From the NCBI GenBank assembly GCA_029562975.1, contig JAKQTR010000016.1, positions 35,887-99,886 on the forward strand: a stretch of 64,000 nt of DNA, given 5' to 3'. A program made the translations under genes and the position numbers. The notes under the pieces were generated by a model. The model saw only the letters and a program-made list of their open reading frames with translations, searched no databases and was not told the DNA's origin. The DNA comes from Acidobacteriota bacterium (GTDB lineage Bacteria > Acidobacteriota > Vicinamibacteria > Vicinamibacterales > JAKQTR01). Numbering within the stretch: the first letter of the stretch is position 1; the number at the start of each line of letters is the position of its first letter. This document shows positions 10,466 through 27,061 of the stretch, piece after piece.

Positions 10466-11392
10466 TCAGCCTGCGGGCGCGACGACCGGCTTCTCGCCCG
10501 CGAAGATGCGATCGAGGCGCGCCACCACGTCCTTCAGGTAGGCCGCGTCCCCCCCGCTGATCTCGGTCGTGACCCAGCCCTGGTACTTGATGTCGGCGAG
10601 GGCCTTGCGGACGGCCGGCCAGTCGACGTCGCCGTTGCCCAGGTTCACCCAGGCGTACTGGCTCTTGCCGCGCTCCTGTTTGAAGTCCTTCACGTGGACT
10701 TTCACGACGCGCTGGCCGAGCGTGCGGATCCAGTCGTCCGGGAACCCGTAGAAGAGCATATTGCCCACGTCGAGGTACGCCTTCACCCAGGGCGACGCGA
10801 ACTCATCCACGTACTTGGCCATCTCGAGCGGGCTGAGCAGGAACTTGTTCCAGACGTTCTCCATCCCGACGACGACCTTCAGCTCCTGCGCGAGGGGCAG
10901 GATGCGCTCCCTGATCACCTTCTGCGAGCGCGTCCAGGCGTCCTTGTAGGAGGTCTCGGCGTTCACCACCGCCGGCACCAGGAGCACCGTGTCAGCGCCC
11001 CACAGCCTGGCGTTGCGGAGGGACGTCTCCATGCCCGCCACGCTCTTCGACACCACCTCGGGGTCGGCGCTCGACAGGGGGTACCGCCAATGGTCGGCGT
11101 TCATCACGCCGTGGATCGTCAGGCCGGTCTTCTCGGCGGCCTCCTTGATCTCCGCCGCGACGGCCGGTTCGGCAATCGTGCCGATTTCGATGCCCTCGAA
11201 CCCCACCTCGCGTGCCAGCTTGAACTTGTCGAGATAGGACAGTTCCCTCGGCAGCATGCTGACGTAGAGGGCCTTCTTCAACCCGCCGCCCGCCTGGGCC
11301 GCCGCCGCAGAGGCCGCAGCGGGCCGGAGCGCCGCCAGGACCGAGGCTGCCGCCGTCATCTCCAGGAACCCGCGCCGATCGATCGTTCTCAT
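10466..11392 (-). CDS. Xylose-isomerase-like TIM-barrel protein (sugar phosphate isomerase/epimerase family) with twin-arginine signal
   Basis: Inner ATG at 11392 follows GGGAGGTGG. The N-terminus MRTIDRRGFLEMTAAASVLAAL is Tat-type. The body shows GFEGIEI, VVGMENVWN, AYLDVGN and VHVKDF, typical of this fold. Confidence 0.85.
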   Translation of the reverse strand: MRTIDRRGFLEMTAAASVLAALRPAAASAAAAQAGGGLKKALYVSMLPRELSYLDKFKLAREVGFEGIEIGTIAEPAVAAEIKEAAEKTGLTIHGVMNADHWRYPLSSADPEVVSKSVAGMETSLRNARLWGADTVLLVPAVVNAETSYKDAWTRSQKVIRERILPLAQELKVVVGMENVWNKFLLSPLEMAKYVDEFASPWVKAYLDVGNMLFYGFPDDWIRTLGQRVVKVHVKDFKQERGKSQYAWVNLGNGDVDWPAVRKALADIKYQGWVTTEISGGDAAYLKDVVARLDRIFAGEKPVVAPAG

Positions 11393-11566: not shown

Positions 11567-12856
11567 ATGAACGAACCCAGAGACACCAAGGTCACGCGCC
11601 GCGAATTCGTGGGCGTGGCCGCCGCCGCGACCGCGGGATTCACCATCCTGAAGCCTGCCACGGTTTTCGGCACGCAGGCGAACTCCGCCGTGAGCCTCGG
11701 CCTGATCGGCGCCGGAGGGCGCGGCACGGCCGTGACGCGCTCGTTCCTCCAGAACAGCGGCGCCGTGCTCACGGCGGTGGCCGACATCTTCCAGGACCAG
11801 CTGGATCGGGCCAAGGCGAACCTCGACTCCCTCAACACGAAGCTTGGCAAGCCGGCGATCGCGCGGACCTACAAGGGCGTCGGCGCCTGCAAGGAACTGC
11901 TGGCCGGCAAGGACATCGACGCGGTGTACATCGCCACGCCGCCGTTCTTCCACCCGGCGCAGCTCGAGGCGGCGCTCGCCGCCGGGAAGCACGTGTACCT
12001 GGAGAAGCCGGTCGGCGTGGACGTGCCCGGGGCCAAGAAGATCATGGCGCTCGGCGAACAGGCCAAGACCAAGAAGCTGAGCCTCGCCGTGGGGTTCCAG
12101 ATCCGGTACGCGTCGCCCTACGTGCTGCTCGAGAAGCGCATCCGCGAGGGGCAGATCGGCACGATGGTGTCGGGCGAGACCCACTACTTCGCGTCCAACA
12201 TCAACCGGCCGCCCTTCGACGACAAGTCGGCCGACGAGCGCCGCCTCCGCAACTGGATCTACGAAAAGACGCTGTCGGGCGACATCATCGTCGAACAGAA
12301 CATCCACATCATCGACGTCACCAACTGGCTGCTGGGCGGACGCCCCGTCAAGGCGTTCTGCACGAACGGCCGCGCCGGGCGCACGGATCCGGGCGACTGC
12401 TCGAGCCACTACAGCGGCGTGTTCACGTATCCGAACGACGTGCACATCAGCTTCGCCTCGACCCAGTACGGCAAGGCCGCGTGGGGCGTCGGCATGCAGT
12501 ACTACGGCACGCGGGGCATCGCCGAGGCGCGCTACGACGCGCCGGTGCGCATCTCGGGCGCCACGAACTGGGAGTTCCCCGGGCTCGGCAAGCCCGAGGC
12601 CGTCGATCAGCAGGCCGCGGTCACGGGGCAGTTCCGCGGCGCGCTCGACGACGCCGACGCGAACAAGCAGGCGGCGTTCATCGGCAGCATCGTCACCGGC
12701 AAGCTGCTCAACGAGGCCACGCAGGGCGCCGAGTCCACCCTCGCGGGCATCCTCGGCCGCATGTCGGCGCAGCTCGGCCGCGAGTTGACCTGGGACGAGA
12801 TGCTGAAGTCGACCGAGGCGTACGACCCGAAGATCAACTTCGCGCAGTTCACCTAG
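11567..12856 (+). CDS. Gfo/Idh/MocA family oxidoreductase with twin-arginine signal (periplasmic, glycoside 3-dehydrogenase-like)
   Basis: Inner ATG at 11567 follows GAAGGAGGGAG. Tat motif VTRREFVGVAAAATAG, Rossmann LGLIGAGGRG and EKP motif (KHVYLEKPVG). Confidence 0.85.
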   Translation: MNEPRDTKVTRREFVGVAAAATAGFTILKPATVFGTQANSAVSLGLIGAGGRGTAVTRSFLQNSGAVLTAVADIFQDQLDRAKANLDSLNTKLGKPAIARTYKGVGACKELLAGKDIDAVYIATPPFFHPAQLEAALAAGKHVYLEKPVGVDVPGAKKIMALGEQAKTKKLSLAVGFQIRYASPYVLLEKRIREGQIGTMVSGETHYFASNINRPPFDDKSADERRLRNWIYEKTLSGDIIVEQNIHIIDVTNWLLGGRPVKAFCTNGRAGRTDPGDCSSHYSGVFTYPNDVHISFASTQYGKAAWGVGMQYYGTRGIAEARYDAPVRISGATNWEFPGLGKPEAVDQQAAVTGQFRGALDDADANKQAAFIGSIVTGKLLNEATQGAESTLAGILGRMSAQLGRELTWDEMLKSTEAYDPKINFAQFT

Positions 12857-12862
12857 GGCGCT

Positions 12863-12900
12863 GCGGGGGCCCGCGGCCGGAGTCGGCGGCGGGCCCCCGC
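12863..12900. terminator. GC-rich perfect hairpin between convergent stop codons (bidirectional terminator-like, no U-tract)
   Basis: GCGGGGGCCCGC at 12863-12874 pairs perfectly with GCGGGCCCCCGC at 12889-12900 (12 bp), with 4 further inner pairs. It is centred between the stops at 12856 and 12905. Confidence 0.45.
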
Positions 12901-12904
12901 CCCG

Positions 12905-13741
12905 TCAGGATCCCGCCAGCGGCTCGAGATCGATCCTCCGGAAGTAGATCTCCGCGCCCTCGGACTGGATCAGGATCTTCCCCTCCGTCAGGCTCGACCG
13001 GGTCGCCTCGTTCACGACCGTGCCGTTCACCGTCACGGTCACCCGGTCGCCCTGCGCCGTGATCTCCATGCGCGTCCACTGCCCGTACGGGCTCTCGACG
13101 TCCTCCCGGCCGCGAAACCCCAGCGCGTCCTTCCAGTCGGCGTCCCGGCCGTGCCAGTTGAGGCGGCCGCTCGCGAAATCGCGCGCCTCCCCCTTGGGGT
13201 CGTAGAACCACTCGCCGTCGCGGTCCTGCGACGCCCGTGCCGCCAGCGTCGGCCTCAGCCGGGTGCCGTCGGCCTCGAAACCGGCGACCAGGATGAAATC
13301 GCCGACGCCGCCCTCGATGATCTGGGCCTCGATGGATCGCATCCACGCGCCGTTGAAGTCCTTTCCGGTATTGCCGTCCGCCCCCTGCGCGTGGATGAGG
13401 ACGCCGCTGTCGCGGGCCGCGTTCTTCCGCTGGCCCCAGGTCAGCAGCCCCCACCGGAACTCCACGACCAACCGGTAGTCCCGGTAGGACTCCCGGGACA
13501 CCAAGCCGCCCCAGCGCTCCCCGCTGATGCGGACGGCGGGCGCCCCGTCCACCTGATCCACGACGCTGAACACCCGCAGCGGATCCTCCCGGTGCGTATC
13601 CACGAGCCACGGGTAGAACGCGTCGAGCGTCTTCCCGTCGAAGAGGCGAATCACGCCGCCCGGCGTGACGGCCGGCTGGGCGGCGGCGGCCGAGGGCACG
13701 GCGAGCGCGGCAAGGAACAGGACGGACGGCGCGATGCGCAT
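12905..13741 (-). CDS. DUF1080 (3-keto-disaccharide hydrolase family) secreted protein
   Basis: ATG at 13741 follows GGAGGT. Signal peptide MRIAPSVLFLAALAVPSAAAAQP. Family-typical LFDGKTLDAF, YRDYRLVVEFRW, SGVLIH, ILIQSEGAEIYFRRIDL. Confidence 0.85.
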   Translation of the reverse strand: MRIAPSVLFLAALAVPSAAAAQPAVTPGGVIRLFDGKTLDAFYPWLVDTHREDPLRVFSVVDQVDGAPAVRISGERWGGLVSRESYRDYRLVVEFRWGLLTWGQRKNAARDSGVLIHAQGADGNTGKDFNGAWMRSIEAQIIEGGVGDFILVAGFEADGTRLRPTLAARASQDRDGEWFYDPKGEARDFASGRLNWHGRDADWKDALGFRGREDVESPYGQWTRMEITAQGDRVTVTVNGTVVNEATRSSLTEGKILIQSEGAEIYFRRIDLEPLAGS

Positions 13742-13762
13742 CGGGACCTCCACCGATCAGGG

Positions 13763-14974
13763 TCAGATTCTCAGGAACAGCTTGCGGCGGTACATCCAGA
13801 ACAGAATCAGCCAGTACGCCGCCAGGACGAACGCGCCCATCACGAACGGCTCGTACGCGGCGCCGAAGGCCGTGAAGAAGCCCGCGCCGAGATGGGTGCG
13901 CAGGGAGGACGCGATGAAGTCCTCGAAGAGGTGCGCGATCATGTAGGCCGCAATCGAGTTCATCCCGATGACGACCAGCGGGAACGCCGGCTTGCGCCAG
14001 CCGCGCAGGTCCACCACCGCGTAGAACGCGGCCAGGAGCAGGAAGCACCAGCCGCCGCTGAACAGCGTCCAGCTCGGTGTCCAGATGCGTTTGACCGACG
14101 GGCAAATCCCGACCGCGTCCAGCAGCCAGCCGGCGGCGATCCCGATGAGGCCCGCCGTCACGAGCCACGTCATCCGCTGCCGGGCCGTCCGGCCGCTGCG
14201 CATGACGCGCCCGGCGGCCAGTCCCAGGATCATGGTGCCGAGCGTCGGGATGAAGCTCAGCGTCGCGTAGCCGCCGCCGTTGAACCTGAACCAGCCGTCC
14301 GGCGGGAACAGATTGAGGAACCAGCGGTCGAAGGCCCACGCGAGATTCGTGTTCTTGTTCCAGTGCGCCGCGAACCCCTGGTAGTTGTACGCCCAGCCTG
14401 GCGTCGTGCCGGCAGCCGCCCAGTCGAAGCCGGAACCGGGCAGCGGGTACAGCGCGAACGCCGCCCAGTAGCCGACCAGGATGAGGGCGAACGCAATCCA
14501 GGCGGTCCGCATCTTGCGGAAGCCCAGCAGGAACAGCAGGGGATAGCCCAGGCCGATCTGCGTGAGCGTATCCTCGAAGGTGAACCGCGTGGCGTCCCGG
14601 CCGATGGATCGCAGGAAGATGCCCAGCGCCACGAGCACGAACGCGCGCCAGACGGCGTGCGCGGTCATGGCTTTCTTCGAGTGGCCCCGCGCGAGGCGGC
14701 TCGCCATCGAGTACGGCAGGGCCACGCCCACCATGAACGAGAACGCCGGCTGGATGAGATCGTGCAGCGAACAGCCCGCCCATGGCGCGTGGGTTTGGTG
14801 GAACGCGAGAACCCTCCAGAACGCGCTTGCGGGCACGGCGGCGGCCACCGCCGCCAGGCGGAGCACCTCGGCCATCATCAGGAACATCACGAAGCCGCGG
14901 AAGGCGTCGAGCGACACGAGACGCTCGACTGGAGTCGTCGTCGGGGCCGCAGCAGCGGCAGCGGGTTCACGCAT
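13763..14974 (-). CDS. Heparan-alpha-glucosaminide N-acetyltransferase-like (DUF5009/DUF1624) polytopic acyltransferase
   Basis: The [17 protein letters not shown] start motif plus about 11 hydrophobic helices. ATG at 14974 was chosen. An in-frame GTG at 15010 is an alternative start. Confidence 0.75.
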
Positions 14975-15097
14975 GCCCGGGATGATACCGTGCCGCGCCG
15001 CGCCGCGCACGTTCTTTGGGAGCGCGAGGGCAGGCGAGAGGAAGAGCGGCTCGGGAACCGGCCTCCCGGCGGCCGGCGCAGGCTCGGCGCCGGCCGC

Positions 15098-16402
15098 CTA
15101 GCGCACCGGCACGGCCGACAGCGCGGCGAGGCCCTCCCGGACCAGGAGGTCCTCCAGGCCTGGCGCGAACGGGACGAGCGTCGTGAAACGGGGCGCGCAC
15201 CAGCAGGCGTAGTCGGCCGGGTCGGCGAACGCCTCGCGGCTCGGCAGGTAGCCGACGCTGCCGTTGGCGTAGCCGGCAACCCACGCCCCTGGGGCGCCCT
15301 CCCGGATCCGGACGCCGATGCGGGTGAACGGCTCCCCGGGAAGCGCCAGGATCCGCAGGGGGCCGATCCCGACGGCCTGGATAGGCACGCCGTCGACGAA
15401 CGGCCGCTCGGCCAGCCGGCCGCCGGAGGCGCGCGCAAGGCGCTCCCACTCCGCGGCGAACCGCGGCGCGCCGGGGAACAGGCCGAACCGCTCGACAAAC
15501 GCCCGGGCCTCTTGCGCGATCCGCTCGCCGCTCCAGGCGACGAGCGGCAGCGCGATGCGCCGCTCGGCGGCCGCCACCCCGGCGGGGGCGCACGCGTCCG
15601 CGCGGGCGGCGATCCGGCGCGCGTGCAGCGCCAGCCGTTCCCCCGTCCGCCGCACAGCCTCGGACGCGCCAACCCCGTTCTCGCGGCATGCAGCCACGGG
15701 ATCGATCTCGCCGCTGCACCCCTGGAGCACGAGTCCGCAGTCGCCGGCCTCTTCGAAGCAGGCCGCCACCGCGCCAGGCCAGTCGGCCGTGACATCGCCC
15801 GTCGGCCCTGCCGTCACCGGATGACAGGCGTAGCCGACCAGGTAGATCCTGCGATCCGGCCGTTCGAACCGCGCCACGCGCAGCCCTGGGTCCGCGGCGC
15901 CGGCCTCCGGACCGCGGCGGTTGCGGCCGATGCCGTCAACGACGCCCTCCCCTACCCGCATGGCGCACCTGCGAAGATCGGCGGCGGACCGATCAACGGC
16001 CTCGTCGATCCACGCGGGCAGCCGGTCCATGTAGGCGGCATCCATCTCGCCCAGGCCGATCGCGGGCTTCGTGGCCGGTCCGGAGTGGGTGTGGGTGCAG
16101 GCGAGCAGCACGTGGGCCGGGGGCAGGCCCCACCGATCGGCGATCCGGCGGCGGTGCCGGTCGGCCTCGTCCACCGCGAGCCCGATAAGGTCGCACGAGA
16201 TCAGGAAGACCCGGGCATCTCCGAGGCGGACGCACACCGAGCGGACGTGCAGCTCGTCGAGCACCCGCTCGGCCCGACGCTCGAGGTAGAACCCGTAGCC
16301 GGCCAGTTCGGTGCCAATCGGCGGCGTGATGATCCGCTCGCCGTAGCCCGCCTCCAGCCCGGCGGCCGCAGGCCTGCCTCCTCCACTCACGGCGCGTGCC
16401 AC
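15098..16402 (-). CDS. Neutral/alkaline ceramidase N-terminal-domain-like hydrolase (cytoplasmic, no signal peptide)
   Basis: Track ORF of 434 aa with a GTG start 3 nt after the upstream stop. ITPPIGTELAGYG and ACTHTHSGPA match the neutral-ceramidase-like family signature. Confidence 0.7.
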   Translation of the reverse strand: MARAVSGGGRPAAAGLEAGYGERIITPPIGTELAGYGFYLERRAERVLDELHVRSVCVRLGDARVFLISCDLIGLAVDEADRHRRRIADRWGLPPAHVLLACTHTHSGPATKPAIGLGEMDAAYMDRLPAWIDEAVDRSAADLRRCAMRVGEGVVDGIGRNRRGPEAGAADPGLRVARFERPDRRIYLVGYACHPVTAGPTGDVTADWPGAVAACFEEAGDCGLVLQGCSGEIDPVAACRENGVGASEAVRRTGERLALHARRIAARADACAPAGVAAAERRIALPLVAWSGERIAQEARAFVERFGLFPGAPRFAAEWERLARASGGRLAERPFVDGVPIQAVGIGPLRILALPGEPFTRIGVRIREGAPGAWVAGYANGSVGYLPSREAFADPADYACWCAPRFTTLVPFAPGLEDLLVREGLAALSAVPVR

Positions 16403-16405
16403 CGT

Positions 16406-17200
16406 CTACCTGCCGGAGTCCGGCAGCACCTGGCCGAGACACCGCAGCCAGAAGTCGGCGTAGCGCTCCCAGAACACGAAGTTGCACGCCCAGTGCGGCG
16501 CCGGGTCCGACATGAACGCCAGGGATCGCCCGGCGCCGCAGCGGCGGACGGCCACCAGCGGGTCGCCGGTCTCGCGCACCTCGGCGAGCACCCGGCCGTC
16601 CTCGCTCGGCCGGACCTTGTTGTAGCCGAGGAGCGGCGGCATCGCCCCGAGGTCGAGGCCGGCGAACGCCGGCGCCCCCGCCGCAGTCGGCCTCGCCGTG
16701 AAGCCTTCGGTGCTCTCGACGAGGTCCTCCGTCTCCAGGCACCGCACCGGCAGCAGCTCAGCCAGGCGCGTGCGCCCCCATCCGCCCTTCCCCATCTCGC
16801 CGGTGAACGAATACCAGCCGCCGAGGAACATCACGCCCTTGCCGGCGCGCACGGCGTCGATGGTCAGCCGGATGCGATCCGGGAACGTCAGGATCGTCGA
16901 GCCGAACTTCTCGCGGTCGAAGAAGGAGGGGGCGAGCTGGAACAGCTTGGCATCCACGTCGCTGAACACGAAGACGTCGTGCCCCTCCAGCACGCGTTCG
17001 TACCCGCCCGGCGGCAGCTTGTAGAAATCCCACGCCGGCACGGACGTGACCTGGTGCTCGCCGGTGGACTGCAGCGCGTCGGTCAGCCACGTTCCGTAGT
17101 TGAAGATCTCGAGCCCCTTCGGCGAATGGTAGAACGGCGTCTCGGCGAAGCTGGGGCCGACAAGCACGGCCCAGTCCCCCGCGTAGTAGATGCGAGCCAT
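16406..17200 (-). CDS. Putative class-I glutamine-amidotransferase-like protein (GATase1-like/DUF1355-type)
   Basis: Track ORF of 264 aa. ATG follows AAGGAGG. Normal amino-acid composition. The family assignment rests on recollection of the MARIYYAGDW...VFVFSDV...GGWYSF pattern and is tentative. Confidence 0.5.
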   Translation of the reverse strand: MARIYYAGDWAVLVGPSFAETPFYHSPKGLEIFNYGTWLTDALQSTGEHQVTSVPAWDFYKLPPGGYERVLEGHDVFVFSDVDAKLFQLAPSFFDREKFGSTILTFPDRIRLTIDAVRAGKGVMFLGGWYSFTGEMGKGGWGRTRLAELLPVRCLETEDLVESTEGFTARPTAAGAPAFAGLDLGAMPPLLGYNKVRPSEDGRVLAEVRETGDPLVAVRRCGAGRSLAFMSDPAPHWACNFVFWERYADFWLRCLGQVLPDSGR

Positions 17201-17221
17201 CGGGTCGCCTCCTTCGCGCCG

Positions 17222-18973
17222 CTATCGGCGGCGCTCCTGCATGTGCGCCACGTGCGCGCGCAGGGTCGTTTTGGTGGACTCGAACCAGTCCGGGAATTCC
17301 CGCTCGAGGCCGTCGAGCGTACGCTCGGCCAGCGACAGCAGCGCGCCTGCGGCGCCACGGCCGCCGGGCCGCTCCAGCAGGCGGTCGAACCGCTCGAGGA
17401 TGAGCACTTCGTTGGGCTCGGAACGGCCGTAGATCAACTCTCCGGGATACAGCTCGACGAGTGCCGCGAGGACATCCCGCTGGGCCGCGGTGCGGCCGAG
17501 GGCGAAGATGGCCTCCGCGATCGACGCCTGCGGGTCGTAGCCTGCCGGGTCAGCAGCGAAGTCGGCGCACGTGGCCAGCGGCAGGCGGTTCACGTCGTGC
17601 TGGGGCGCATGCGGGTTGCTGAGATAGGCGCCGGCCACCGCCGTCAGATCGGGATCCCGGCCGGTCACCGGCCCGAGGTGCAAGATGGGAAAGCGGTCGT
17701 TCGTGGGGTAGTTGTCCCAGATGAAGAGCCGGCGGCGCACCAACGAACGGAACGTCTCGCCGCACGCGCGGGTGATCGCCGGGGCCACCGACTGGTCTCC
17801 GGTCCAGAACACGTACACGTCGTCGAGCAGCGTCCGCCCCAGCGCTTCGAGGTACGGCCTGACCGAAGGCGCGTCCCCGCAGCCGTAGTAGGTGACCGGG
17901 CAGAACACGAGCTGGGCCGACGGCGAGGACCGCCTGAGCCGCTCGAGGAGGCGGTTCGCGACGCGGGCCTGCCCCTCGGCGAGCGCCGGCATGTCCAGGC
18001 CCCGCGTGGGGATGTCGTCGAAGCACAAGCTGAACCAATTGACCCCGGCCTGCTGCATCCACTCGTACTGGCGCCACAGCGCCTCGAAGTCCGCCTCGTC
18101 GTCCAGCTTCAGCGGCCGCTCGGAGTGGAGCTGGGGGTGGAAGGCGAAGCAGAACTCCACGCCGTTCAGCCGGCACTGGCGCGCGATTTCCGAGAAGGCG
18201 CGCTTCTTCTCGTCCGGGATCGGCTCCCACCATCGGTTGATCTTCCTGACGGCGTCGGTGTACATCGACGTGTAGCCGTTCATCAGGAAGTTCAAGCCGA
18301 ACCGCGCGAGCCACGGGATCTCGGACAGGTACTGCTCGGGCGTCCATCCCCAGCCCTTGGTGCCCCGGACGGCGAAGCCGCCGGTCGGGGGCCGCGGCGC
18401 CGGGCCGGCCGGCGAGGCCAGCGACAGATCCACGGTGTAGGCCGTGGTCAGCTCGTGAACCGGCACGTGCGACACCGGGCCGACAACGGCCTCGGCGACG
18501 AGCAGCGCCTGCGGCACGCCGCGATTGCCGCCTGCGCTCGCGCACCGCACCTCGAGCCGGTTCGCGCGCGGACGGAGCGCGCCCGCCGGCAGTCGGAACC
18601 GCCGAAGTTCCCACCACTCGCGGGGGAAGGGCCGAGGCCCGACGGGGATCCGGCTCCCGTTCAGCACGATCTCGACGGCTGGCGGAGCGCCCTCTCCCTC
18701 GGCGCGGGCTTTCAGCCAGACGGCGTAGGGGCCGCCCGGCGTGGCGCCGAGGTCGAAGGTCGCGCGGACTGCGGCTCTTGTCGCGCGCGCGCCGGCGCCG
18801 AGCTGACGAGCCTCGGTCAGCCCCGCGAGTTCGCCCGGCGGCACCCGCACCGCCGCCCCGCCGGCGAACTCGGCGCTCGTCAGCCGCAGGACCGGAGCGG
18901 CGGCGGGCCCGGCCTCCGGCCTGGCCGCGAGACACAGCACGATCGACGCGGCAAGCCACAACGGCCGCCTCAT
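17222..18973 (-). CDS. GH84 family beta-N-acetylglucosaminidase (O-GlcNAcase/NagJ-like), secreted
   Basis: Inner ATG at 18973 follows GGGAGGGAGGA. Signal peptide MRRPLWLAASIVLCLAA. An N-terminal beta-rich domain of about 200 aa precedes the TIM barrel. The barrel carries the adjacent-Asp catalytic motif SLCFDDIPTRG and FIWDNYPTND. Confidence 0.8.
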   Translation of the reverse strand: MRRPLWLAASIVLCLAARPEAGPAAAPVLRLTSAEFAGGAAVRVPPGELAGLTEARQLGAGARATRAAVRATFDLGATPGGPYAVWLKARAEGEGAPPAVEIVLNGSRIPVGPRPFPREWWELRRFRLPAGALRPRANRLEVRCASAGGNRGVPQALLVAEAVVGPVSHVPVHELTTAYTVDLSLASPAGPAPRPPTGGFAVRGTKGWGWTPEQYLSEIPWLARFGLNFLMNGYTSMYTDAVRKINRWWEPIPDEKKRAFSEIARQCRLNGVEFCFAFHPQLHSERPLKLDDEADFEALWRQYEWMQQAGVNWFSLCFDDIPTRGLDMPALAEGQARVANRLLERLRRSSPSAQLVFCPVTYYGCGDAPSVRPYLEALGRTLLDDVYVFWTGDQSVAPAITRACGETFRSLVRRRLFIWDNYPTNDRFPILHLGPVTGRDPDLTAVAGAYLSNPHAPQHDVNRLPLATCADFAADPAGYDPQASIAEAIFALGRTAAQRDVLAALVELYPGELIYGRSEPNEVLILERFDRLLERPGGRGAAGALLSLAERTLDGLEREFPDWFESTKTTLRAHVAHMQERRR

Positions 18974-20730
18974 GTCGCTCCTCCCTCCCGCCCGGGCCAG
19001 ATGCGCCGCAGCAGCCAGGTGCCGGCCGCGAGGCCGCCAGCCAAACCCGCCCCGAACGGCAGCCACCTCGCCACGAAGGCGGCGTTCGTCGCCACGACCA
19101 GGCCGACGCACGCGACCACCCCGAGCAGGCAATCGACCACCAGCTTCGGCCACGACTCCGGCGGGGCGGAAGCCGCGCCCGCGCGCCGCGCGATGTGCGC
19201 CCATCGCCCGGGGGGTCTGCACCTGCGGTAGAACGCCACCAGCGTGTCGTCGGACTCAGCCGGTGTGAGCAGCGTGACGGTCAGAAGCACGGCGACGCTC
19301 GTCAGGAACAGGATGCCCGTCCCCTGCCACAACGGGCGGTGCTCGAAGCCCCACACGAACCACACCAGGATCGACGCCGGCAGCCCGAGGACGATCGCGG
19401 CCAGCTCGCCCCACACGTTGAAACGCCACCAGAAGAAGCGGAGCCACGACAGGGGCAGCAGGAAGACGACCATCGCCGAGTTGATGAAGAGAAACCAGCC
19501 CACCATGCCCTTGACGAACAGGATCGCCACGGTCCCCGCGAACGCGAAGAGCGCGAGCGTCGTCAGGCGGCTGACCACGATCTGACGGCGCCGTGGCGCA
19601 TCGGGCCGCGCCGGCAGGTAGAAATCGTTCACGACGAGGCTGCTGCCCCAATTGATCAGCGAGCTCAGGGTGGACATGAAGGCGGCCGCCTCCGTCGCCA
19701 CGAGCAGCCCCGCCAGGCCGACCGGCAGCGCCGTGACGCGAACCAGCGTGCCCCACGCGTGCGCCGGGTCCGCCAAGGTCGTCATGCCTGCGGGGGCCGG
19801 GCCGATGGCGCCGGCCAGATCGGCGGTCCAGAACAGCGACAGCGCGATCGTGCCCAGCCCGATGAGCGGGATGGTCCGCAGCGACAACGAGAGGAACGCG
19901 TTGAAGAGCTGCCCGCCCATCGCGTGGCGCTCGTTGACGGCGCCCATGAACCGCTGGGCGGTCATCCCTTCGCCCGCCGTCGGCGAACTGGCGTAGAAGA
20001 GCCCCTGCACGACGAGCATCAGCATGGTCAGCAGCGGGATCTGGTCGGTCGGCGGCAGCGGATCCAGGCCGCCGGGCCTGACCGACTCGATGCGGCCGAG
20101 AATCGCCGCCCATCCGCCGAATTGCGGCACCGCCACGGCGAAGAACACGAGGTTGCCGACGAGGAAGACGCCGAACTGCAGCACGTCGGTAAAGACCACC
20201 CCGGCGAGGCCGCCGAACATCGTGTAGGCCACCGTGACGCCGCCGAAGATCAGGAGGATCTGCCACTCGCTCAGGGGCACGAGCGGCGCCACCGTCTTCG
20301 CGAAGAACCCGGTGATGTAGCCGATGATCAGGACCGCGTAGGCGAACAGCAGCACGGCGTACACGCGGCGCGCGGCGGCGGCAGGTCTCCCCCCGTAACG
20401 CAGCGTGATCAGCTCGGCCGTCGTCACGACCTGCAGGCGGCGCCACAGCTTCGCCCAGACGATGGCGACGAGCGGCATCCAGACGACCCAGGCCGTCCAC
20501 CAGAGCCAGTTGCCGGCGAGGCCGAACACCAGGACGAGCATGACGAAGCCGCCGACGCCCGACTGATAGGTGGCGGAGTTGGACAGGCCGATCGCCCACC
20601 ACGGGAGGCTCCGGTTGCCGGTGAAAAAACCCGCCGCACCCTGGCGGGAGGCGGAGCGGGTGAACCAGACGCCGAGGGACAGCGAAGCCGCGCACAGGGC
20701 GGCGACGACGAGCCAGTCGATGCCGGTCAT
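18970..20730 (-). CDS. Sodium:solute symporter (SSS) family transporter
   Basis: Inner ATG at 20730 gives MTGIDWLVVAALCAASLSLGVWFT...FFTGNRSLPWWAIGLS, typical of SSS proteins. About 13 hydrophobic helices. ATGA overlap with the GH84 start. Confidence 0.85.
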   Translation of the reverse strand: MTGIDWLVVAALCAASLSLGVWFTRSASRQGAAGFFTGNRSLPWWAIGLSNSATYQSGVGGFVMLVLVFGLAGNWLWWTAWVVWMPLVAIVWAKLWRRLQVVTTAELITLRYGGRPAAAARRVYAVLLFAYAVLIIGYITGFFAKTVAPLVPLSEWQILLIFGGVTVAYTMFGGLAGVVFTDVLQFGVFLVGNLVFFAVAVPQFGGWAAILGRIESVRPGGLDPLPPTDQIPLLTMLMLVVQGLFYASSPTAGEGMTAQRFMGAVNERHAMGGQLFNAFLSLSLRTIPLIGLGTIALSLFWTADLAGAIGPAPAGMTTLADPAHAWGTLVRVTALPVGLAGLLVATEAAAFMSTLSSLINWGSSLVVNDFYLPARPDAPRRRQIVVSRLTTLALFAFAGTVAILFVKGMVGWFLFINSAMVVFLLPLSWLRFFWWRFNVWGELAAIVLGLPASILVWFVWGFEHRPLWQGTGILFLTSVAVLLTVTLLTPAESDDTLVAFYRRCRPPGRWAHIARRAGAASAPPESWPKLVVDCLLGVVACVGLVVATNAAFVARWLPFGAGLAGGLAAGTWLLRRIWPGREGGAT

Positions 20731-20851
20731 GCGGGAATCCCGACCGGGGGCGCGCTCCGGAGCGGCGAGGCCGCGGTCCCGGGCCGAAGAACCGCCGCTA
20801 GTATATGATGCCCCCCGCCAGGCAGCGAAGGCCTCGCGGGAAGGAGTGCCC

Positions 20852-21814
20852 ATGGACCGCCGCGAGTTCATCACGAGGAGTTCCGCCGCGTCCCTGCTCG
20901 CCTGCTTCCCCGCCTCCCTGGCCGGGATCGAACGGACGTTCGAGGCCGGCAAGCTCGAGCGCCGCGCGCTCGGCCGGACGGGCGAGCGCCTCTCCCTCAT
21001 CGGCTTCGGCGGCATCGTCGTCAAGGACGCGACCACGGCGGAGGCTGCCGCCCGCGTGGCGGAGGCGATCGACCACGGCGTCAACTACTTCGACGTGGCG
21101 CCGACCTACGGCAACGCGCAGGACATGCTCGGGCCCGCGCTGGAGCCGTACCGGAAGGGCGTGTTCCTCGCGTGCAAGACGACGGAGCGAGGCCGGGCGG
21201 GCTCGCAGCGCGAGCTGGACGAGTCGCTGCGCAAGCTCCGGACGGATCGCTTCGATCTCTACCAGCTGCACGCGGTCAACACGCGCGAGGACGTCGAGCG
21301 GGTCTTCATGGCCGACGGGGCGCTCGAGACGCTGGTGGCGGCCAGGAAGGCGGGGAAAGTCCGGTTCCTCGGCTTCTCGGCCCACACGGTCGAAGCGGCA
21401 CTGGCGCTCATCGCGAGGTTCGACTTCGACACGATCCTCTTCCCCGTCAACTTCGCGACGTGGCACGCCGGGAGCTTCGGGCCGCAGGTGCTCGCCGCGG
21501 CGCAGGCGAAGCAGATGGGCATCCTCGCGCTCAAGGCCATGGCGAAAGGCCCCTGGCCCGCCGGCGCGAAGCGGGATCAGTACCCGAAGTGCTGGTACGA
21601 GCCGCTGTCGGACCCGGCCGACGCGACGATGGGCCTGCGCTTCACGCTGTCGCACCCGGTTACGGCCGCGGTGCCGCCGGGCGACGAGCGCCTGTTCAAG
21701 ATGGCCCTCGGGCTCGGGCTGCGCTTCACGCCGCTCGCGGCACAGGACGCGGCCGCGATCAAGGAGCGGGGCCAGAAGACCACGCCGCTCTTCACGCACC
21801 CGAGCTGGACCTAG
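20852..21814 (+). CDS. Aldo/keto reductase with twin-arginine signal
   Basis: Inner ATG at 20852 follows GGAAGGAG. Tat motif MDRREFITRSSAASLLAC. AKR body with LGRTGERLSLIGFGG, NYFDVAPTYGNAQ, DLYQLHAV and LGFSAH. Confidence 0.9.
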   Translation: MDRREFITRSSAASLLACFPASLAGIERTFEAGKLERRALGRTGERLSLIGFGGIVVKDATTAEAAARVAEAIDHGVNYFDVAPTYGNAQDMLGPALEPYRKGVFLACKTTERGRAGSQRELDESLRKLRTDRFDLYQLHAVNTREDVERVFMADGALETLVAARKAGKVRFLGFSAHTVEAALALIARFDFDTILFPVNFATWHAGSFGPQVLAAAQAKQMGILALKAMAKGPWPAGAKRDQYPKCWYEPLSDPADATMGLRFTLSHPVTAAVPPGDERLFKMALGLGLRFTPLAAQDAAAIKERGQKTTPLFTHPSWT

Positions 21815-21845: not shown

Positions 21846-24512
21846 TCAGCGGTCGATGCCGAACCAGTAGCTCAGCTTGACCAGGAACACGTTGTCGGGG
21901 CGCGCGGTGAACCAGCGCTTCGCGTCGGCCCCGAAGTCGAAGGTCCCGTCGGGCGCGCGGTCGCGGCGCTGCTGCGTCCACACGACGAAGAGCGAGGACC
22001 CGGGCCGGAACTCCCAGCGGAAGATGGCGTTTGCCTTGAGCGACCGCAGGTTGAAGTCGGGCTTGGCGATCGAAAAGGGGCTCGCGCCGCCGGCGCCGTC
22101 GGGATCGATCGTGTAGCGCGAGCCCGCGTCGACAATCGAGCCCGCGTCCTCCCCGTACCGCACGAAGTCGAACGTGCGCGGCGCGTACACCTCCTTGATG
22201 GCGCCGTAGTCCGCCGCCGACACGAGCGGCTGCAGGTACACCTGCAGCGAGGTCCGCGGCGACGCAACGAGGTTGACCCGCGTCGTGATCGACACCTGCG
22301 CCTGTCGCATCTCGCCGAACACGTAGCGCGCCCCGAACGTGCGCGTGGCCAGCGCATCGGGCACGGTGGCCAGATACTGGGCCGCCACGATGCTGTGCGT
22401 GATGGCCGGACCGGCCGTCACCGTCAGCGCGGGGGCCGGGCGCCAGACAAGCTGCAGCTCCGACGCGTGCGACTCGGCGTCGTACTCCCGGTCCGTGAAG
22501 GCGTAGGCGGCCGAGAAGGCCAGGCGCCGCCGGGTGTCGCTGGACGTGGACACCGTCACGCCGCGGTTGCCGGGCCGGATGACCGTCGGGCCTCCCCGGG
22601 TCAGCTTGTCGTCCCAGACCCGCTTCGCGTACGAGAGCAGCACGGACGACCGCCAGAAGTTCCGGAACTGGACGCTCGCTGAGGACTGCCAGCCGTCGCC
22701 CTGCGACTCGTTGCCGTAGTTCCACGTCCACCACTTCGCCAGCCAGACGTACCGCTCCCGGGACCATCGCGCCGGCGTGAGCTTGCGCCACTGCACCATC
22801 GCGTGCGCCCCGGCGCGATCCGTCTGGGTCGAGTAGCCGGCGTCATTGACCTCGAGCCCGGGGCTCATGCCCCAGATGCCGACGTTCACCGTCACGTTGC
22901 CGCTGTTGCGGTTGACATTGGCCTGGCCCGTCCATCCGGACATGCTCGTCGCCTCGGGATGGAGCCGCACGTGGGGCGCGTCGGGCCGCTGGTTGTAGCG
23001 CTGCTCCGCCTTCTGCAGGCGCATGATGGCCGACGTCGAGCCGTGCACCCAGGAGCCGGCGATCCCGCCGTGCACGACCCAGTTTCGCCCGTGGTCGAGG
23101 AACAGGTGCCCGTCCACGCCGAGCATCACCGCCCGATCCGTGAGGACCGAGGCCAGCGCGGGATCGCCCAGGTTGCGCACGACGGAGGTGCCGAGCACGC
23201 CCAGGCCCGCCCGCCTCCCCAGCTCGCGCTGCGCGCGGAAGACGGCGTAGTTCGTCAGCGGCTCGACCTCCGGCCGCGTGGTCGTCAGGCCGTCGGAGAC
23301 GCGGGCGCGCTCGCGGCCGGTGACGGCCTCGAGGGCGCCGAGGGTCCACCCGCCGGCCGTGCGGCCGATGAGCTTGGCCGCGCCGAGGATGGTGGTGTTG
23401 GCGGGCGCGTCCACGTAGGGGCCGACGGCCGCGATCTGCGGCGCCCTGCCGATGCGCCGGCTGTAGAACAGCGTCGGCTCGGGGCGAAAGAACCCCACCT
23501 GCGCGCTGGCGCCGCTCTTGCCGAAGTTGCGGAACACGCTGGCGCCCTCGGTGAAGAACGGCCGCCGCTCCTCGAAGAACGTCTCGAACTGCGTCAGGTT
23601 GACGACGGCCGGGTCGACCTCGACCTGGCCGAAGTCCGGGTTGAACGCGGCGTCGAGCGTCAGGCTGCTCGAGACGCCGTACTTGAGGTCGAGGCCCCCG
23701 GAGGCAAACCCGCGCGAGCCGTCGTTGAACGGCGTGCCCGCGGACGATGGTGCGATGAACTCGGCGCGGCCCGTCACGTAGGGCATCAGCTGCAGGGTCG
23801 AGGGAGGGTCGATGCCGGCGATGCCTTCGAGGCGCGCCATGCGCGAGGCGAGCCCGGATTCGTTCTTGGGCACGAGCTGCAGCCAGTCGCTCTCGTTGCG
23901 CCGCTGCAGGATCCGCTGGACGTTGATGCCCCACGTGTAGCGCTCGGCGCGGGGAAAGCGCAGCTGGGACAGCGGGATGCGCAGTTCCACCGTCCAGCCG
24001 CCGGGGCCGACGGCGACGGCCGACTCCCAGACGGCGTCCCAGGAGGGGTCGAGGTAGGTGTCGTTGTAGATCAGGGCGTCGCGCTGCACGCCCGCGGCCG
24101 ACACCGCGAACTGCGCGCCCGTCAGCTTGTCGTCGTGGGGATCCAGGTACAGGACGAAGCCGTCGGCCTCCACCGCTGCGTCACGCCGCGACAGCTGGCG
24201 CACGATGGCGCCCGGCTCGCGATCCCGCAGGTCGCCGGCCACGTACAGCGCGCGATCATCGAACGCGATGCGCACGCTCGTCTCCTCGGTGGCGGGAGCG
24301 CCTTCCTGCGGGTCCCGCTGCAGGAAGCCCGACACGGGCACCGCCCGGGCCCACACCGGGTCGTCGAGCCGCCCGTCGATGGTGGGGGGCGCGTCGGCCC
24401 GCACGGCGATCACCGTCCGGACGGGCGCCTCCCCTTGGGCGAGTGACGCCGCGGGGGCGAGCAGCAGAAACGCCAGCGCCGTCACGGACGGCGCCGCTTC
24501 GCGACGGCGCAT
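21846..24512 (-). CDS. DUF5916 / CBM9-like carbohydrate-binding outer-membrane-type protein
   Basis: Track ORF of 888 aa with signal peptide LAFLLLAPAASLAQGE. N-terminal PTIDGRLDDPVWARA is CBM9-like. A long beta-rich C-terminal region ends in LVKLSYWFGIDR. Confidence 0.8.
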   Translation of the reverse strand: MRRREAAPSVTALAFLLLAPAASLAQGEAPVRTVIAVRADAPPTIDGRLDDPVWARAVPVSGFLQRDPQEGAPATEETSVRIAFDDRALYVAGDLRDREPGAIVRQLSRRDAAVEADGFVLYLDPHDDKLTGAQFAVSAAGVQRDALIYNDTYLDPSWDAVWESAVAVGPGGWTVELRIPLSQLRFPRAERYTWGINVQRILQRRNESDWLQLVPKNESGLASRMARLEGIAGIDPPSTLQLMPYVTGRAEFIAPSSAGTPFNDGSRGFASGGLDLKYGVSSSLTLDAAFNPDFGQVEVDPAVVNLTQFETFFEERRPFFTEGASVFRNFGKSGASAQVGFFRPEPTLFYSRRIGRAPQIAAVGPYVDAPANTTILGAAKLIGRTAGGWTLGALEAVTGRERARVSDGLTTTRPEVEPLTNYAVFRAQRELGRRAGLGVLGTSVVRNLGDPALASVLTDRAVMLGVDGHLFLDHGRNWVVHGGIAGSWVHGSTSAIMRLQKAEQRYNQRPDAPHVRLHPEATSMSGWTGQANVNRNSGNVTVNVGIWGMSPGLEVNDAGYSTQTDRAGAHAMVQWRKLTPARWSRERYVWLAKWWTWNYGNESQGDGWQSSASVQFRNFWRSSVLLSYAKRVWDDKLTRGGPTVIRPGNRGVTVSTSSDTRRRLAFSAAYAFTDREYDAESHASELQLVWRPAPALTVTAGPAITHSIVAAQYLATVPDALATRTFGARYVFGEMRQAQVSITTRVNLVASPRTSLQVYLQPLVSAADYGAIKEVYAPRTFDFVRYGEDAGSIVDAGSRYTIDPDGAGGASPFSIAKPDFNLRSLKANAIFRWEFRPGSSLFVVWTQQRRDRAPDGTFDFGADAKRWFTARPDNVFLVKLSYWFGIDR

Positions 24513-24531
24513 GCCGCAGACTCCCTTCAGC

Positions 24532-25935: not shown

Positions 25936-25942
25936 GACGCGG

Positions 25943-27055: not shown

Positions 27056-27061
27056 GCCTCG

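Follow-up and report, generated by a model that had tools for sequence, protein, structure and literature searches.

A run of six minus-strand genes in the window (the whole stretch of 64,000 nucleotides analysed here) brings together a secreted GH84 glycosidase and a relative of the acetyltransferase HGSNAT. HGSNAT acts on α-GlcN of heparan sulfate ahead of the lysosomal α-N-acetylglucosaminidase (GH89), and the substrate-assisted catalysis of GH84 enzymes requires a 2-acetamido group. An earlier note on this DNA had proposed that the six genes form one operon with an acetylate-then-cleave route for GlcN-containing glycans. Spelled out, the HGSNAT-like protein would use cytoplasmic acetyl-CoA to N-acetylate terminal GlcN of extracytoplasmic glycans (chitosan-like or partly deacetylated polymers), which GH84 would then cleave. 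The question raised by the locus is whether these two proteins serve one pathway. Our preferred explanation, to which we assign a probability of about 0.6, is that the locus is composite: a catabolic cassette of four genes (unit A, approximately 15098–20730) was gained once in the lineage of this Vicinamibacterales-like MAG, between an aldo-keto reductase gene and a resident NagX/HGSNAT-like and DUF1080 pair (unit B), and would provide a route from GH84 through an SSS transporter to a deacylase. The features concerned are as follows.

18970–20730, minus strand: SSS sodium:solute symporter (586 aa; PF00474)
17222–18973, minus strand: secreted GH84 protein of the β-N-acetylglucosaminidase family (583 aa; PF07555)
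16406–17200, minus strand: GATase1-like PF07090 protein (264 aa; PF07090)
15098–16402, minus strand: ceramidase-like protein, predicted Zn-amidase (434 aa; PF04734 below gathering score, and predicted fold)
13763–14974, minus strand: HGSNAT/NagX-like protein (403 aa; NCBIfam NagX; alternative GTG start at 15010)
12905–13741, minus strand: DUF1080 protein (278 aa; PF06439)
11567–12856, plus strand: TAT-exported Gfo/Idh/MocA oxidoreductase (Pfam match, twin-arginine N-terminus)
10466–11392, minus strand: TAT-exported xylose-isomerase-like TIM-barrel protein (Pfam match, twin-arginine N-terminus)
9219–10343, plus strand: second TAT-exported xylose-isomerase-like TIM-barrel protein (Pfam match, twin-arginine N-terminus)
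14925–20845, minus strand: segment without counterpart in locus L091 (blastn), comprising the four-gene cassette and flanking intergenic DNA
15068–15098, minus strand: GC hairpin (perfect 12-bp stem, 7-nt loop)
14975–14987, minus strand: TATCAT box (14982–14987) with its 7-nt spacer (conservation)

Layout and family assignments

The order, orientation and junctions described in the earlier note were reproduced: reading from the SSS gene to DUF1080, the GH84 start overlaps the SSS stop codon by 4 nt (ATGA), and the following gaps are 21, 3, 87 or 123, and 21 nt. Each of the six ORFs has a third-position GC of 0.88–0.94 with GC1 > GC2, and all coincide with genes annotated in public entries for this contig (DAOOCY010000015.1, GCA_035408625.1). 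Co-orientation of six genes alone is no more than chance expectation.

The family assignments and localisations that had been read from motifs also held. The SSS protein, encoded by the opening gene of the cassette, matches PF00474 (4.8e-37, 128 bits), has approximately 13–14 hydrophobic segments and is 65–74% identical at the amino acid level to the SSS proteins of cassettes from Aminicenantes. The GH84 protein matches PF07555 (4e-49, 168 bits) and the solved structures 5diy (6.7e-33) and BtGH84 (5e-27), with the Asp pair of its FDDI motif (D319-D320) aligned to D119/N120 of 5diy. It is composed of an N-terminal signal peptide (MRRPLWLAASIVLCLAARPEAG), an N-terminal domain of approximately 200 aa without known type, the catalytic TIM barrel and a C-terminal helical region. 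The barrel and Asp-Asp pair are shared with the O-GlcNAcase homologues BtGH84, CpNagJ and TtOGA, and BtGH84 and NagJ are likewise secreted; in contrast to all three, the window enzyme has the novel N-terminal region and sits in an SSS/PF07090/ceramidase-fold cassette, and its relatives bear a C-terminal ADP-ribosylglycohydrolase fusion.

The third and fourth cassette proteins have no signal peptide and are predicted to be cytoplasmic. The GATase1-like protein matches PF07090 (5.8e-43, 148 bits) and the structures 3soz (STM1381; 3e-29) and 2gk3, and is 68–78% identical to its Aminicenantes homologues. It is not a true amidotransferase and lacks the Cys nucleophile; the residues invariant in the PF07090 alignment are K28, S80, D81, R109, S131, D159, E162, D232 and H236. 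The ceramidase-like protein scores just 25 bits against PF04734, under the gathering score of 32.1, but its AF2 model (pLDDT 84.8) retrieved only neutral ceramidases when the PDB was searched with Foldseek (E 2.5e-24, TMq 0.70–0.73). The THTHSGP motif aligns with catalytic positions of solved relatives, and H104/H106/E357/Y385, which are invariant in the family alignment, correspond to the Zn-site residues H97/H99/E411/Y448 of 2zws. The modelled fold and Zn site are those of the neutral ceramidases PaCD (2zws) and human ASAH2 (4wgk), although identity is 16–18%, the C-terminal domain is missing (434 aa against approximately 630–690 aa) and the context is sugar catabolism rather than lipids. 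On this model the gene is predicted to encode a cytoplasmic Zn-amidase with a neutral-ceramidase catalytic fold. Its only solved relatives are lipid ceramidases.

The HGSNAT-like protein is, by homology, a polytopic membrane protein of the HGSNAT/NagX family rather than an unrelated acyltransferase. It matches the NagX model NF046061 (9.7e-46) with 156 bits, far below the equivalog cutoff of 480, and human HGSNAT (8vkj) at 1.2e-16. The acetyl-carrying His is conserved, with HAPWAG aligned to HASWNG of the human protein, and the SLDAFRG motif also falls on catalytic positions of solved relatives; no Pfam family was matched, PF07786 included. The DUF1080 protein matches PF06439 (5.3e-27, 95.5 bits) and has an N-terminal signal peptide.

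Presence and absence of the cassette in relatives

The closest collinear relative, locus L091 of a Vicinamibacterales MAG, follows the window on both sides at 75–79% nucleotide identity (approximately 78%), but runs from the aldo-keto reductase gene directly to the NagX-like and DUF1080 genes. The blastn alignment jumps from window position 20846 to 14924, so that a segment of 5.9 kb is absent. The cassette is also missing from L098, L099 and L100, and among the close relatives L095 alone shares it, with ceramidase-like proteins 74–75% identical and the junction between cassette and NagX-like gene kept in both. A matrix of NagX identities places the window and L095 closest to each other (88%) and this pair inside a group of cassette-free relatives at 81–85%, a nesting that points to a single gain. 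The locus would then consist of two units joined by insertion, a direction of the event that we infer by parsimony over six loci.

The opposite direction, with the six-gene arrangement ancestral and the cassette deleted in L091, L098, L099 and L100, would account for boundaries that neither contain nor are spanned by mobility genes or repeats, and for a cassette equal to its flanks in base composition. We consider it quite unlikely, as the identity matrix would demand two or more precise and independent losses where one gain suffices, no ceramidase-like homologue closer than 46% was found among 185,579 GTDB species representatives, and the identical four-gene order occurs in Aminicenantes without NagX or DUF1080.

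The wider survey bears on the proposed partnership of GH84 and acetyltransferase. Synteny of each unit was upheld, since SSS-GH84-GATase1-like-ceramidase-like order recurs elsewhere and NagX-DUF1080 adjacency is kept in 6/6 close relatives, but that of the GH84/HGSNAT-like pairing was not: beyond the clade of the window and L095 it occurs in 0 of approximately 160 related loci. Neither NagX nor DUF1080 was found in any of 80 ceramidase-like loci, and GH84, SSS and GATase1-like genes were absent from all 80 metagenome NagX loci. Because the pairing was created by the inserted segment, the acetylate-then-cleave route is left without comparative support. The close, co-oriented spacing, the HGSNAT homology with its catalytic His, the intact Asp pair and signal peptide of GH84, and retention of the junction in two diverged loci would all suit it. 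Against this, the pairing is limited to one small clade whose nearest relatives have NagX-DUF1080 without GH84, no NagX-like gene accompanies the GH84 cassettes of other loci, the NagX-like family otherwise has very variable neighbours, and a conserved −10-like box precedes the NagX-like gene itself (see below). GH84 enzymes are β-specific, so that an analogy with HGSNAT and its α-specific partner GH89 would need β-linked GlcN. Extracytoplasmic acetylation of GlcN by NagX, a transmembrane transacetylase for glucosamine use, is an already published idea, and the genetics tie NagX to free GlcN rather than glycan termini (Price et al. 2022, PMC9007349). Since the GH84 protein matches its family model and the acetyltransferase family is related, the idea is weakened rather than refuted, and we regard it as very unlikely.

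Spacing and upstream elements suggest that units A and B are transcribed separately. Gaps within the cassette are −4, 21 and 3 nt, against 123 nt upstream of the NagX-like gene, where a TATCAT box lies 7 nt from the ATG (14974). This TATCAT-N7-ATG arrangement, as GGTATCATCC-N4-CATG, is kept in the window, L095, L091, L098, L099 and L100, irrespective of whether the cassette is present. A consensus promoter scan gave no match anywhere in the region, so it is by conservation that the −10-like box is recognised. The internal cassette genes have a Shine-Dalgarno sequence, and none was seen upstream of the SSS or NagX-like genes; the box is a candidate promoter of the NagX-like gene's own, for a leaderless mRNA. 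A hairpin (15068–15098) begins at the final base of the ceramidase-like stop codon with no U-tract after it, and was not called by a terminator scan that required a T-run. The fold z-score of the whole intergenic region was not significant, its energy being no better than that of shuffles. The hairpin is possibly a terminator or an RNA-stabilising element, and read-through from the cassette into NagX-DUF1080 is possible.

A candidate deacylation route encoded by the cassette

Outside this clade the steady partners of GH84 are, by gene order, the SSS, GATase1-like and ceramidase-like genes. The four-gene order recurs in L006, L012, L027 and L031 (Aminicenantes, Acidobacteriota), and the cassettes of Aminicenantes, a different class, have it without NagX or DUF1080. 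There, too, the GH84 slot can be filled by a GH84-ADP-ribosylglycohydrolase fusion or by a secreted ADP-ribosylglycohydrolase (as in the SSS-ADP-ribosylglycohydrolase-GATase1-like-ceramidase-like order of L039 and L062), or can be empty (L009). Loci with an ADP-ribosylglycohydrolase or without any glycosidase at this position argue for a core substrate that is not necessarily GlcNAc. Ceramidase-like and GATase1-like genes are also adjacent in the haloarchaeon Haladaptatus, and in Halorussus a PIG-L deacetylase takes the ceramidase-like slot; from these gene contexts, the pairing of the ceramidase-fold amidase with the PF07090 protein appears to be kept in bacteria and haloarchaea alike. In Proteobacteria, M20, ArgE and Zn-hydrolase deacylases adjoin GATase1-like homologues. 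Of 10 sampled contexts of PF07090 homologues, 4 contained none of the listed deacylases. Distant ceramidase-like homologues belong to clusters for sugar catabolism, together with ABC sugar transporters, a BadF-type kinase, a DegT aminotransferase and GFO oxidoreductases.

These observations suggest the following route. Secreted GH84 (in relatives, the fusion or a stand-alone ADP-ribosylglycohydrolase-family enzyme) would act on a glycoconjugate outside the cytoplasm and free GlcNAc or a small product derived from GlcNAc, the SSS protein would carry this inward with Na+, and the ceramidase-fold Zn enzyme would strip the N-acyl (acetyl) group in the cytoplasm, with the PF07090 protein catalysing or assisting an adjoining step. 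This putative scheme follows the logic of the characterised ong oxidative-chitin pathway of Pseudoalteromonas prydzensis (Jiang et al. 2022, PMC9537276), in which a periplasmic β-N-acetylhexosaminidase releases an N-acetyl sugar, the SSS protein OngIT imports it and a cytoplasmic metal-dependent de-N-acetylase acts on it before a second enzyme. The enzymes of the two systems are unrelated: where ong has GH20, a D-aminoacylase and a PLP deaminase, unit A has GH84, the ceramidase-fold amidase and the PF07090 protein. The cassette contains no kinase, deaminase or RidA that would take the product further. The deacylase role is proposed because the protein keeps the fold and Zn ligands of ceramidases and is predicted to be cytoplasmic, because PIG-L, M20, ArgE and Zn-hydrolase enzymes occur beside GATase1-like genes and because the contexts are sugar-catabolic. 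The main interest of the locus lies in this pair and its PIG-L swap, which suggest that GH84 cleavage and Na+-coupled uptake are followed by N-deacetylation of an amino sugar in the cytoplasm.

What the amidase and its partners act on can be read in other ways. That it cleaves a lipid, the cassette breaking down a GlcNAc-bearing glycolipid or lipoamino compound, would fit its solved structural relatives and conserved Zn site, but is highly improbable for a short protein without signal peptide or C-terminal domain that falls under the PF04734 threshold, travels with an SSS protein (an unlikely lipid carrier) and has homologues among sugar transporters, kinases, aminotransferases and glycosidases. 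A joint GlcN/GlcNAc salvage locus is conceivable but doubtful. Here NagX would make GlcNAc from free periplasmic GlcN, GH84 would add more, and import by SSS and deacetylation by the ceramidase-fold enzyme would follow, the insertion being kept since both units feed one pool. According to fitness data, GlcN use through NagX depends on a deacetylase and on a transporter for GlcNAc (Price et al. 2022, PMC9007349), and for both the cassette offers candidates; a distant ceramidase-like gene also lies close by in 3/80 NagX-like loci (L122, L135, L174). However, those three proteins are secreted and thus belong to a different subfamily, a single insertion provides no statistical basis, the NagX-like protein of the window falls far short of the NagX cutoff, cassettes of other lineages function without NagX, and neither a kinase nor a deaminase is present. 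An oxidised amino sugar (N-acetylglucosaminic acid or its lactone) in place of GlcNAc is an unlikely substrate. Here the ceramidase-fold enzyme would take the part of OngB (deacetylation) and the PF07090 protein that of an OngC-like deaminase. In favour, the layout parallels the ong cluster, where the hexosaminidase, OngIT and deacetylase are joined by a deaminase, by RidA and by a KDG kinase. Haloarchaeal ceramidase-like or PIG-L pairs with GATase1-like genes have glucose 1-dehydrogenase and a Rid-family protein next in line, and Proteobacterial GATase1-like clusters hold phosphotriesterase-like (lactonase-type) proteins and PfkB kinases. Against it, the cassette resembles OngA, OngB and OngC by proposed role rather than by homology. 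It lacks RidA, KDG kinase and a regulator, and no dehydrogenase, RidA, lactonase or kinase lies in or near it. We know of no precedent for a GATase1-fold deaminase.

The NagX-like and DUF1080 genes and their neighbours

Under our composite reading, the NagX-like gene is, judging from its neighbourhoods, a resident outside the conserved cassette, and its product would use acetyl-CoA as a transmembrane acetyltransferase, without any demonstrable need for GH84. It belongs to a very large and highly conserved subfamily (NCBI name DUF5009; >8000 homologues at 65–88% identity) found in Acidobacteriota, Verrucomicrobiota and Hydrogenedentota. Unlike NagX, this subfamily was absent from nag or chitin operons in the neighbourhoods surveyed, and its neighbours are as diverse as BamA, GH5, outer-membrane proteins and oxidoreductases.

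We infer by analogy that DUF1080 is functionally grouped with the adjoining TAT-exported oxidoreductase and isomerase-like genes, with which it may act in periplasmic 3-keto-glycoside cleavage. The function of the DUF1080/3-keto-disaccharide-hydrolase family comes from the 'non-Koshland' cluster AL1-AL4/BT2156-2160 (Nasseri et al., bioRxiv 10.1101/2024.03.25.586180), in which DUF1080, a TAT Gfo/Idh/MocA protein and sugar-phosphate-isomerase-like TIM barrels likewise adjoin and are all exported. The published cluster is one operon, whereas the window genes lie on both strands, and the NagX-like partner is peculiar to the window clade. The oxidoreductase and isomerase-like set adjoins NagX-DUF1080 in L091/L092 too.

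Six genes at one locus

Frame-specific GC3 values of 0.88–0.94 pick out six minus-strand genes at 12905–20730 of the window (GC content approximately 71%), and public gene calls match the six boundaries. Contig DAOOCY010000015.1 of the metagenome-assembled genome (MAG) GCA_035408625.1 is identical to the window, as are several metagenome contigs. The earlier note had described the genes as one operon and suggested from it that an HGSNAT-like protein acetylates glucosamine ends that a secreted GH84 enzyme then cleaves. Its six family assignments were borne out by Pfam, NCBIfam and matches to solved structures, its junctions (an ATGA overlap, then 21, 3, 87/123 and 21 nt) by the gene starts and stops, and its location calls by signal peptides on the GH84 and DUF1080 proteins and none on the PF07090 or ceramidase-like proteins. 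Since gene calls, junctions, family matches and signal peptides all agree with it, the observation itself is correct.

Table. The six genes of the locus, with coordinates in the window.
18970–20730, minus strand: SSS transporter (PF00474)
17222–18973, minus strand: GH84 protein (PF07555, 168 bits)
16406–17200, minus strand: PF07090 "GATase1_like" protein (148 bits)
15098–16402, minus strand: ceramidase-like protein (weak PF04734 match, 25 bits, under the gathering score of 32.1)
13763–14974, minus strand: HGSNAT/NagX-like protein (NCBIfam NagX, 1e-45, below the equivalog cutoff; no Pfam match)
12905–13741, minus strand: DUF1080 protein (PF06439)

Gene order in relatives and the junction between the units

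When 185,579 species genomes were scanned with the ceramidase-like protein, 80 loci were recovered. Since a greedy ORF caller was unreliable on several high-GC loci, the presence or absence of genes at comparison loci was called by tblastn. Homologs at 42–47% identity, mostly from Aminicenantes, lie in a recurring module of SSS transporter, GH84–ADP-ribosylglycohydrolase fusion, PF07090 protein and ceramidase-like protein. Among the 80 loci, the order SSS–GH84–PF07090–ceramidase-like was found in L006/L013, L012, L027 and L031, SSS–PF07090–ceramidase-like without GH84 in L009, and GH84–ceramidase-like in L020, L021, L024, L025 and L038, and a NagX-like or DUF1080 gene was detected at none of them (0/80). 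A further homolog, at 57%, is on contig P0003.

The closest long-contig relative of the NagX-like gene is L091, from a Vicinamibacterales MAG, where the genes run PIG-L, amino-acid permease, DUF5916/CBM9, aldo-keto reductase (minus strand), NagX-like, DUF1080, Gfo/Idh/MocA (minus strand), two xylose-isomerase-like genes and IDH. This is the neighbourhood of the window minus the SSS, GH84, PF07090 and ceramidase-like genes (hereafter the cassette); blastn aligns the two at 75–79% identity on both sides and jumps from 20846 to 14924. Three further close relatives without the cassette (L098–L100) came from scanning metagenomes with the NagX-like protein, and at none of the 80 loci of that scan was a GH84, SSS or PF07090 gene near the NagX-like gene. 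Among the close relatives the cassette stands beside the NagX-like gene only in the window and L095, which are each other's closest match (88%) in the NagX identity matrix. Since these two are nested among cassette-free relatives, a single gain is the parsimonious history. No target-site duplications or inverted repeats spanning both cassette ends were found, nor mobility genes at its boundaries.

The four-gene order is conserved across lineages, and the six-gene operon of the earlier note is not supported by the synteny comparison, its order being limited to the window and L095 and the cassette missing from L091 and L098–L100. Judged from gene order, the six genes are probably two units brought together by insertion. 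The locus shows plainly how, when only one genome is viewed, an inserted cassette may pass for a functional operon.

Signals at the junction hint at two transcription units. The gaps within the cassette are −4, 21 and 3 nt, and that before the NagX-like gene is 123 nt; the internal cassette genes have Shine-Dalgarno sequences, the SSS and NagX-like genes none. A perfect 12-bp GC hairpin at the stop codon of the ceramidase-like gene opens the 123-nt gap, the RNA fold of which is as stable as that of shuffled sequences (z = −0.09), and TATCAT-N7-ATG (14972–14987, minus strand) closes it. This −10-like box is kept in all six close relatives, both where the cassette lies on its 5' side and where the divergent reductase gene does, and we infer that it may be the resident promoter of the NagX-like gene, probably giving a leaderless mRNA. 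A scan of 12700–21000 found no consensus promoter, and no terminator in the 123-nt gap, but, being built on sigma-70 and T-run consensus sequences, it probably says little at 71% GC. Read-through from the cassette into the NagX-like gene is possible.

A second A/T-rich box, ATCATATACT (20800–20809, minus strand), occurs approximately 70 nt upstream of the SSS start codon (ATG) and again, in the cassette-free L098, in the spacer between the reductase and NagX-like genes. Both boxes are conserved in otherwise GC-rich intergenic DNA, and the insertion point of the cassette seems to lie between them. Elsewhere in the window a second SSS-family gene (27053–28585, plus strand) lies between BNR_2 (sialidase-like) and PIG-L deacetylase genes; since L091 goes straight from BNR_2 to PIG-L, it looks like another lineage-specific transporter insertion.

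The resident pair and its proposed coupling to GH84

The NagX-like protein matches human HGSNAT (8vkj) at E 1.2e-16 over two stretches (HGSNAT 267–356 and 409–663), and its THAPWAG is aligned with KHASWNG, so that the acetyl-carrying histidine is kept; the acetyl-accepting residue is His297 in HGSNAT and His72 in NagX Shewana3_3111 (PMC9007349). Pfam, including PF07786, gave no family even at E ≤ 1, and homology evidence was therefore taken from NCBIfam and the PDB. As the curated threshold was also failed (NF046061, 156.5 bits against a cutoff of 480), the protein represents a distinct subfamily and not a NagX equivalog. By homology, transmembrane acetyl transfer to an extracytoplasmic amino sugar is its best-supported activity.

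Its family is very large and strongly conserved, with >8000 matches at 65–88% identity from Vicinamibacterales, Verrucomicrobiota and Hydrogenedentota. Neighbours are variable: BamA, GH5, outer-membrane barrels, oxidoreductases and a small 97-aa membrane protein occur, and nagA/K/P-like or GH84 genes, as detectable with the queries used, lie beside it at 0/80 metagenome loci. The ~97-aa protein, absent from the window, is encoded directly 3' of the NagX-like gene in nine of the 80 loci (L126, L130, L137, L140, L144, L150, L169, L172 and L175), mostly overlapping or abutting its stop, and has one N-terminal hydrophobic segment and the motif FDPPAPQxCVNSLFPHFGDPPCWYL. Ceramidase-like genes lie beside or near NagX-like genes in L122 (11196–12584), L135 (7631–9091) and L174 (6520–8028); their products have signal peptides and 26–28% identity to the window protein, a weak indication that co-location of the two families recurs in a different, secreted form.

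The DUF1080 protein and adjacent Gfo/Idh/MocA and isomerase-like proteins (PF06439, PF01408/PF22725 and two PF01261) are all exported, by a signal peptide on DUF1080 and twin-arginine N-termini on its neighbours. Given the roles of these families (bioRxiv 10.1101/2024.03.25.586180), they are predicted to form a gene set for periplasmic 3-keto-glycoside cleavage. NagX-like–DUF1080 linkage is limited to the clade of the window. At 21846–26870 (minus strand), adjoining the divergent aldo-keto reductase, a DUF5916/CBM9 protein, an amino-acid permease and a PIG-L deacetylase form a trio shared with L091 and L092 that may be a further small amino-sugar-related unit. L091 also has a TIG-domain gene (14098–15294) between the second isomerase-like gene and IDH, at the place of which the window has a short spacer (9101–9183).

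Acetylation of periplasmic glucosamine by a bacterial HGSNAT homolog had already been proposed from fitness data (PMC9007349), and the new element of the earlier note is the coupling of such a protein to GH84. Its annotations stand; the functional pairing is not supported, as neither partner's conservation pattern fits it. The acetylate-then-cleave route is accordingly weakened, resting on one insertion event and contradicted by the conservation of both partners. A bacterial relay of an HGSNAT-like protein and then a glycosidase, as in the lysosome, would have been a case of convergent logic, but the evidence does not support the link. A looser connection, in which both units feed one GlcN/GlcNAc pool, seems improbable, and the arrangement is best described as a cassette placed beside an unrelated resident pair by chance or weak selection.

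The cassette proteins and a possible amino-sugar route

The GH84 protein matches the catalytic-domain model well over the cutoff (168 bits against 25) and 38 PDB GH84 chains at E ≤ 1e-3. The adjacent catalytic Asp-Asp of GH84 enzymes supplies the polarising residue and the acid/base; here D319-D320 (CFDDI) are aligned with D119/N120 of TtOGA 5diy, which we take to be the D120N mutant. From family and catalytic pair, it is predicted to be a secreted beta-N-acetylglucosaminidase-family protein.

Foldseek, run against the PDB with an AlphaFold model (pLDDT 84.8) of the ceramidase-like protein, matched neutral ceramidases only (E 1e-22 to 1e-24; best match E 2.5e-24, probability 1.0; TMq 0.70–0.73 for 2zws, 2zxc and 4wgk), with no other significant fold. 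H104, H106, E357 and Y385 are aligned with the zinc-site residues H97, H99, E411 and Y448 of 2zws, aligning with both Pseudomonas and human neutral ceramidases, and are invariant across 31 homologs; the likewise invariant H194 is a candidate counterpart of the fourth ligand, H204. A true lipid ceramidase was rejected because the protein is short (434 aa against 630–690 aa), has no match to the C-terminal ceramidase domain, is cytoplasmic, with no signal peptide found, and falls under the PF04734 gathering score (25 bits against 32.1). Distant homologs adjoin DegT aminotransferases (22 loci), Gfo/Idh/MocA oxidoreductases, sugar ABC transporters, BadF-type kinases and fucosidases. In L043–L090 (for example L046 from Paenibacillus nasutitermitis, L050 and Bathyarchaeota loci) the homologs have 28–36% identity and a DegT/DnrJ/EryC1-type aminotransferase abuts them in 22 loci, possibly an unrecognised amino-sugar pathway. 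A literature search for ceramidase-like deacetylases in amino-sugar clusters found nothing relevant.

The solved homologs of the PF07090 protein are 3soz and 2gk3, and searches on STM1381 and PF07090 found no functional information. The alignment of its homologs contains invariant Ser, Asp and His residues and no invariant Cys, the elbow region reading GG(W/Y)xSF; a true class I glutamine amidotransferase was rejected, since without the nucleophile Cys there is no Cys-His-Glu triad. Ten annotated contexts of plasmid-borne homologs include sugar transporters, LacI regulators, PfkB kinases, BtpA/SgcQ and phosphotriesterase-like proteins. Six of these contexts also contain an N-deacylase, its fold varying by lineage: M20 in Pantoea and Klebsiella, ArgE/DapE in Rhizobium, a Zn-hydrolase in Agrobacterium vitis, PIG-L in Halorussus (L180 4929–6534, Halorussus aquaticus plasmid) and an abutting neutral-ceramidase-N-domain protein in Haladaptatus (L184 3519–5621, Haladaptatus sp. 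QDMS2 plasmid). Both haloarchaeal clusters have glucose 1-dehydrogenase and Rid-family genes close downstream, and because they are otherwise parallel, the ceramidase-fold protein and PIG-L fill one slot. The case for the ceramidase-fold enzyme as an N-acetyl-sugar deacylase that works with PF07090 rests most strongly on this slot being shared with a PIG-L sugar deacetylase. A heparinase II/III-family gene also lies near the Haladaptatus pair. The PF07090 protein and the short cytoplasmic ceramidase-fold amidase make a conserved pair linked to transporters and glycosidases, with the amidase interchangeable with PIG-L and M20 deacylases, which gives two families without a known role in bacteria a hypothesis of function that can be tested.

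On this basis the SSS/PF07090/ceramidase-fold core, here with GH84, is tentatively read as an uncharacterised amino-sugar catabolic route running from Acidobacteriota to haloarchaea (probability about 0.3). The ceramidase-fold zinc enzyme would act in the cytoplasm and remove the N-acetyl group of an N-acetyl sugar or sugar acid that is unphosphorylated, and the PF07090 protein would perform the step after de-N-acetylation. If true, this would give both families their first function and show the ceramidase fold in a role outside lipids. The cassette resembles the ong pathway for oxidised chitin products (PMC9537276) in its secreted beta-N-acetylglucosaminidase, SSS importer and cytoplasmic deacetylase with a second enzyme, but the proteins are unrelated; by this analogy it is best described as a variant of a known pathway kind, in which a glycosidase is followed by an SSS importer and a cytoplasmic de-N-acylase. 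The simplest guess at the substrate in the window is GlcNAc. Oxidised or otherwise modified amino sugars are alternatives, given that cassettes elsewhere have an ADP-ribosylglycohydrolase or no glycosidase and that dehydrogenase, Rid and lactonase-like partners occur in other lineages. The rest of the window was found to lack the KDG kinase, RidA and NagA/B-type genes with which a pathway could be completed. Since cassettes of this kind are frequent in Aminicenantes and in further uncultured lineages of sediment and soil, knowing the substrate would improve annotations of carbon and nitrogen cycling.

The Aminicenantes cassettes L006, L012, L027 and L031 encode secreted GH84–ADP-ribosylglycohydrolase fusions of ~940 aa, and a stand-alone ADP-ribosylglycohydrolase with a signal peptide lies between SSS and PF07090 genes in L039 (7655–9217) and L062 (7466–8359). 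An exported ARH-family enzyme is unexpected and, if the amino-sugar route is true, the fusions hint at an unrecognised extracellular glycoconjugate as substrate. Seven Aminicenantes loci (L016, L018, L021, L028, L037, L038 and L041) also encode, 5' of the GH84 and/or ceramidase-like gene, a conserved ~780-aa protein with a signal-like N-terminus and no Pfam match, which may be an unclassified glycosidase.
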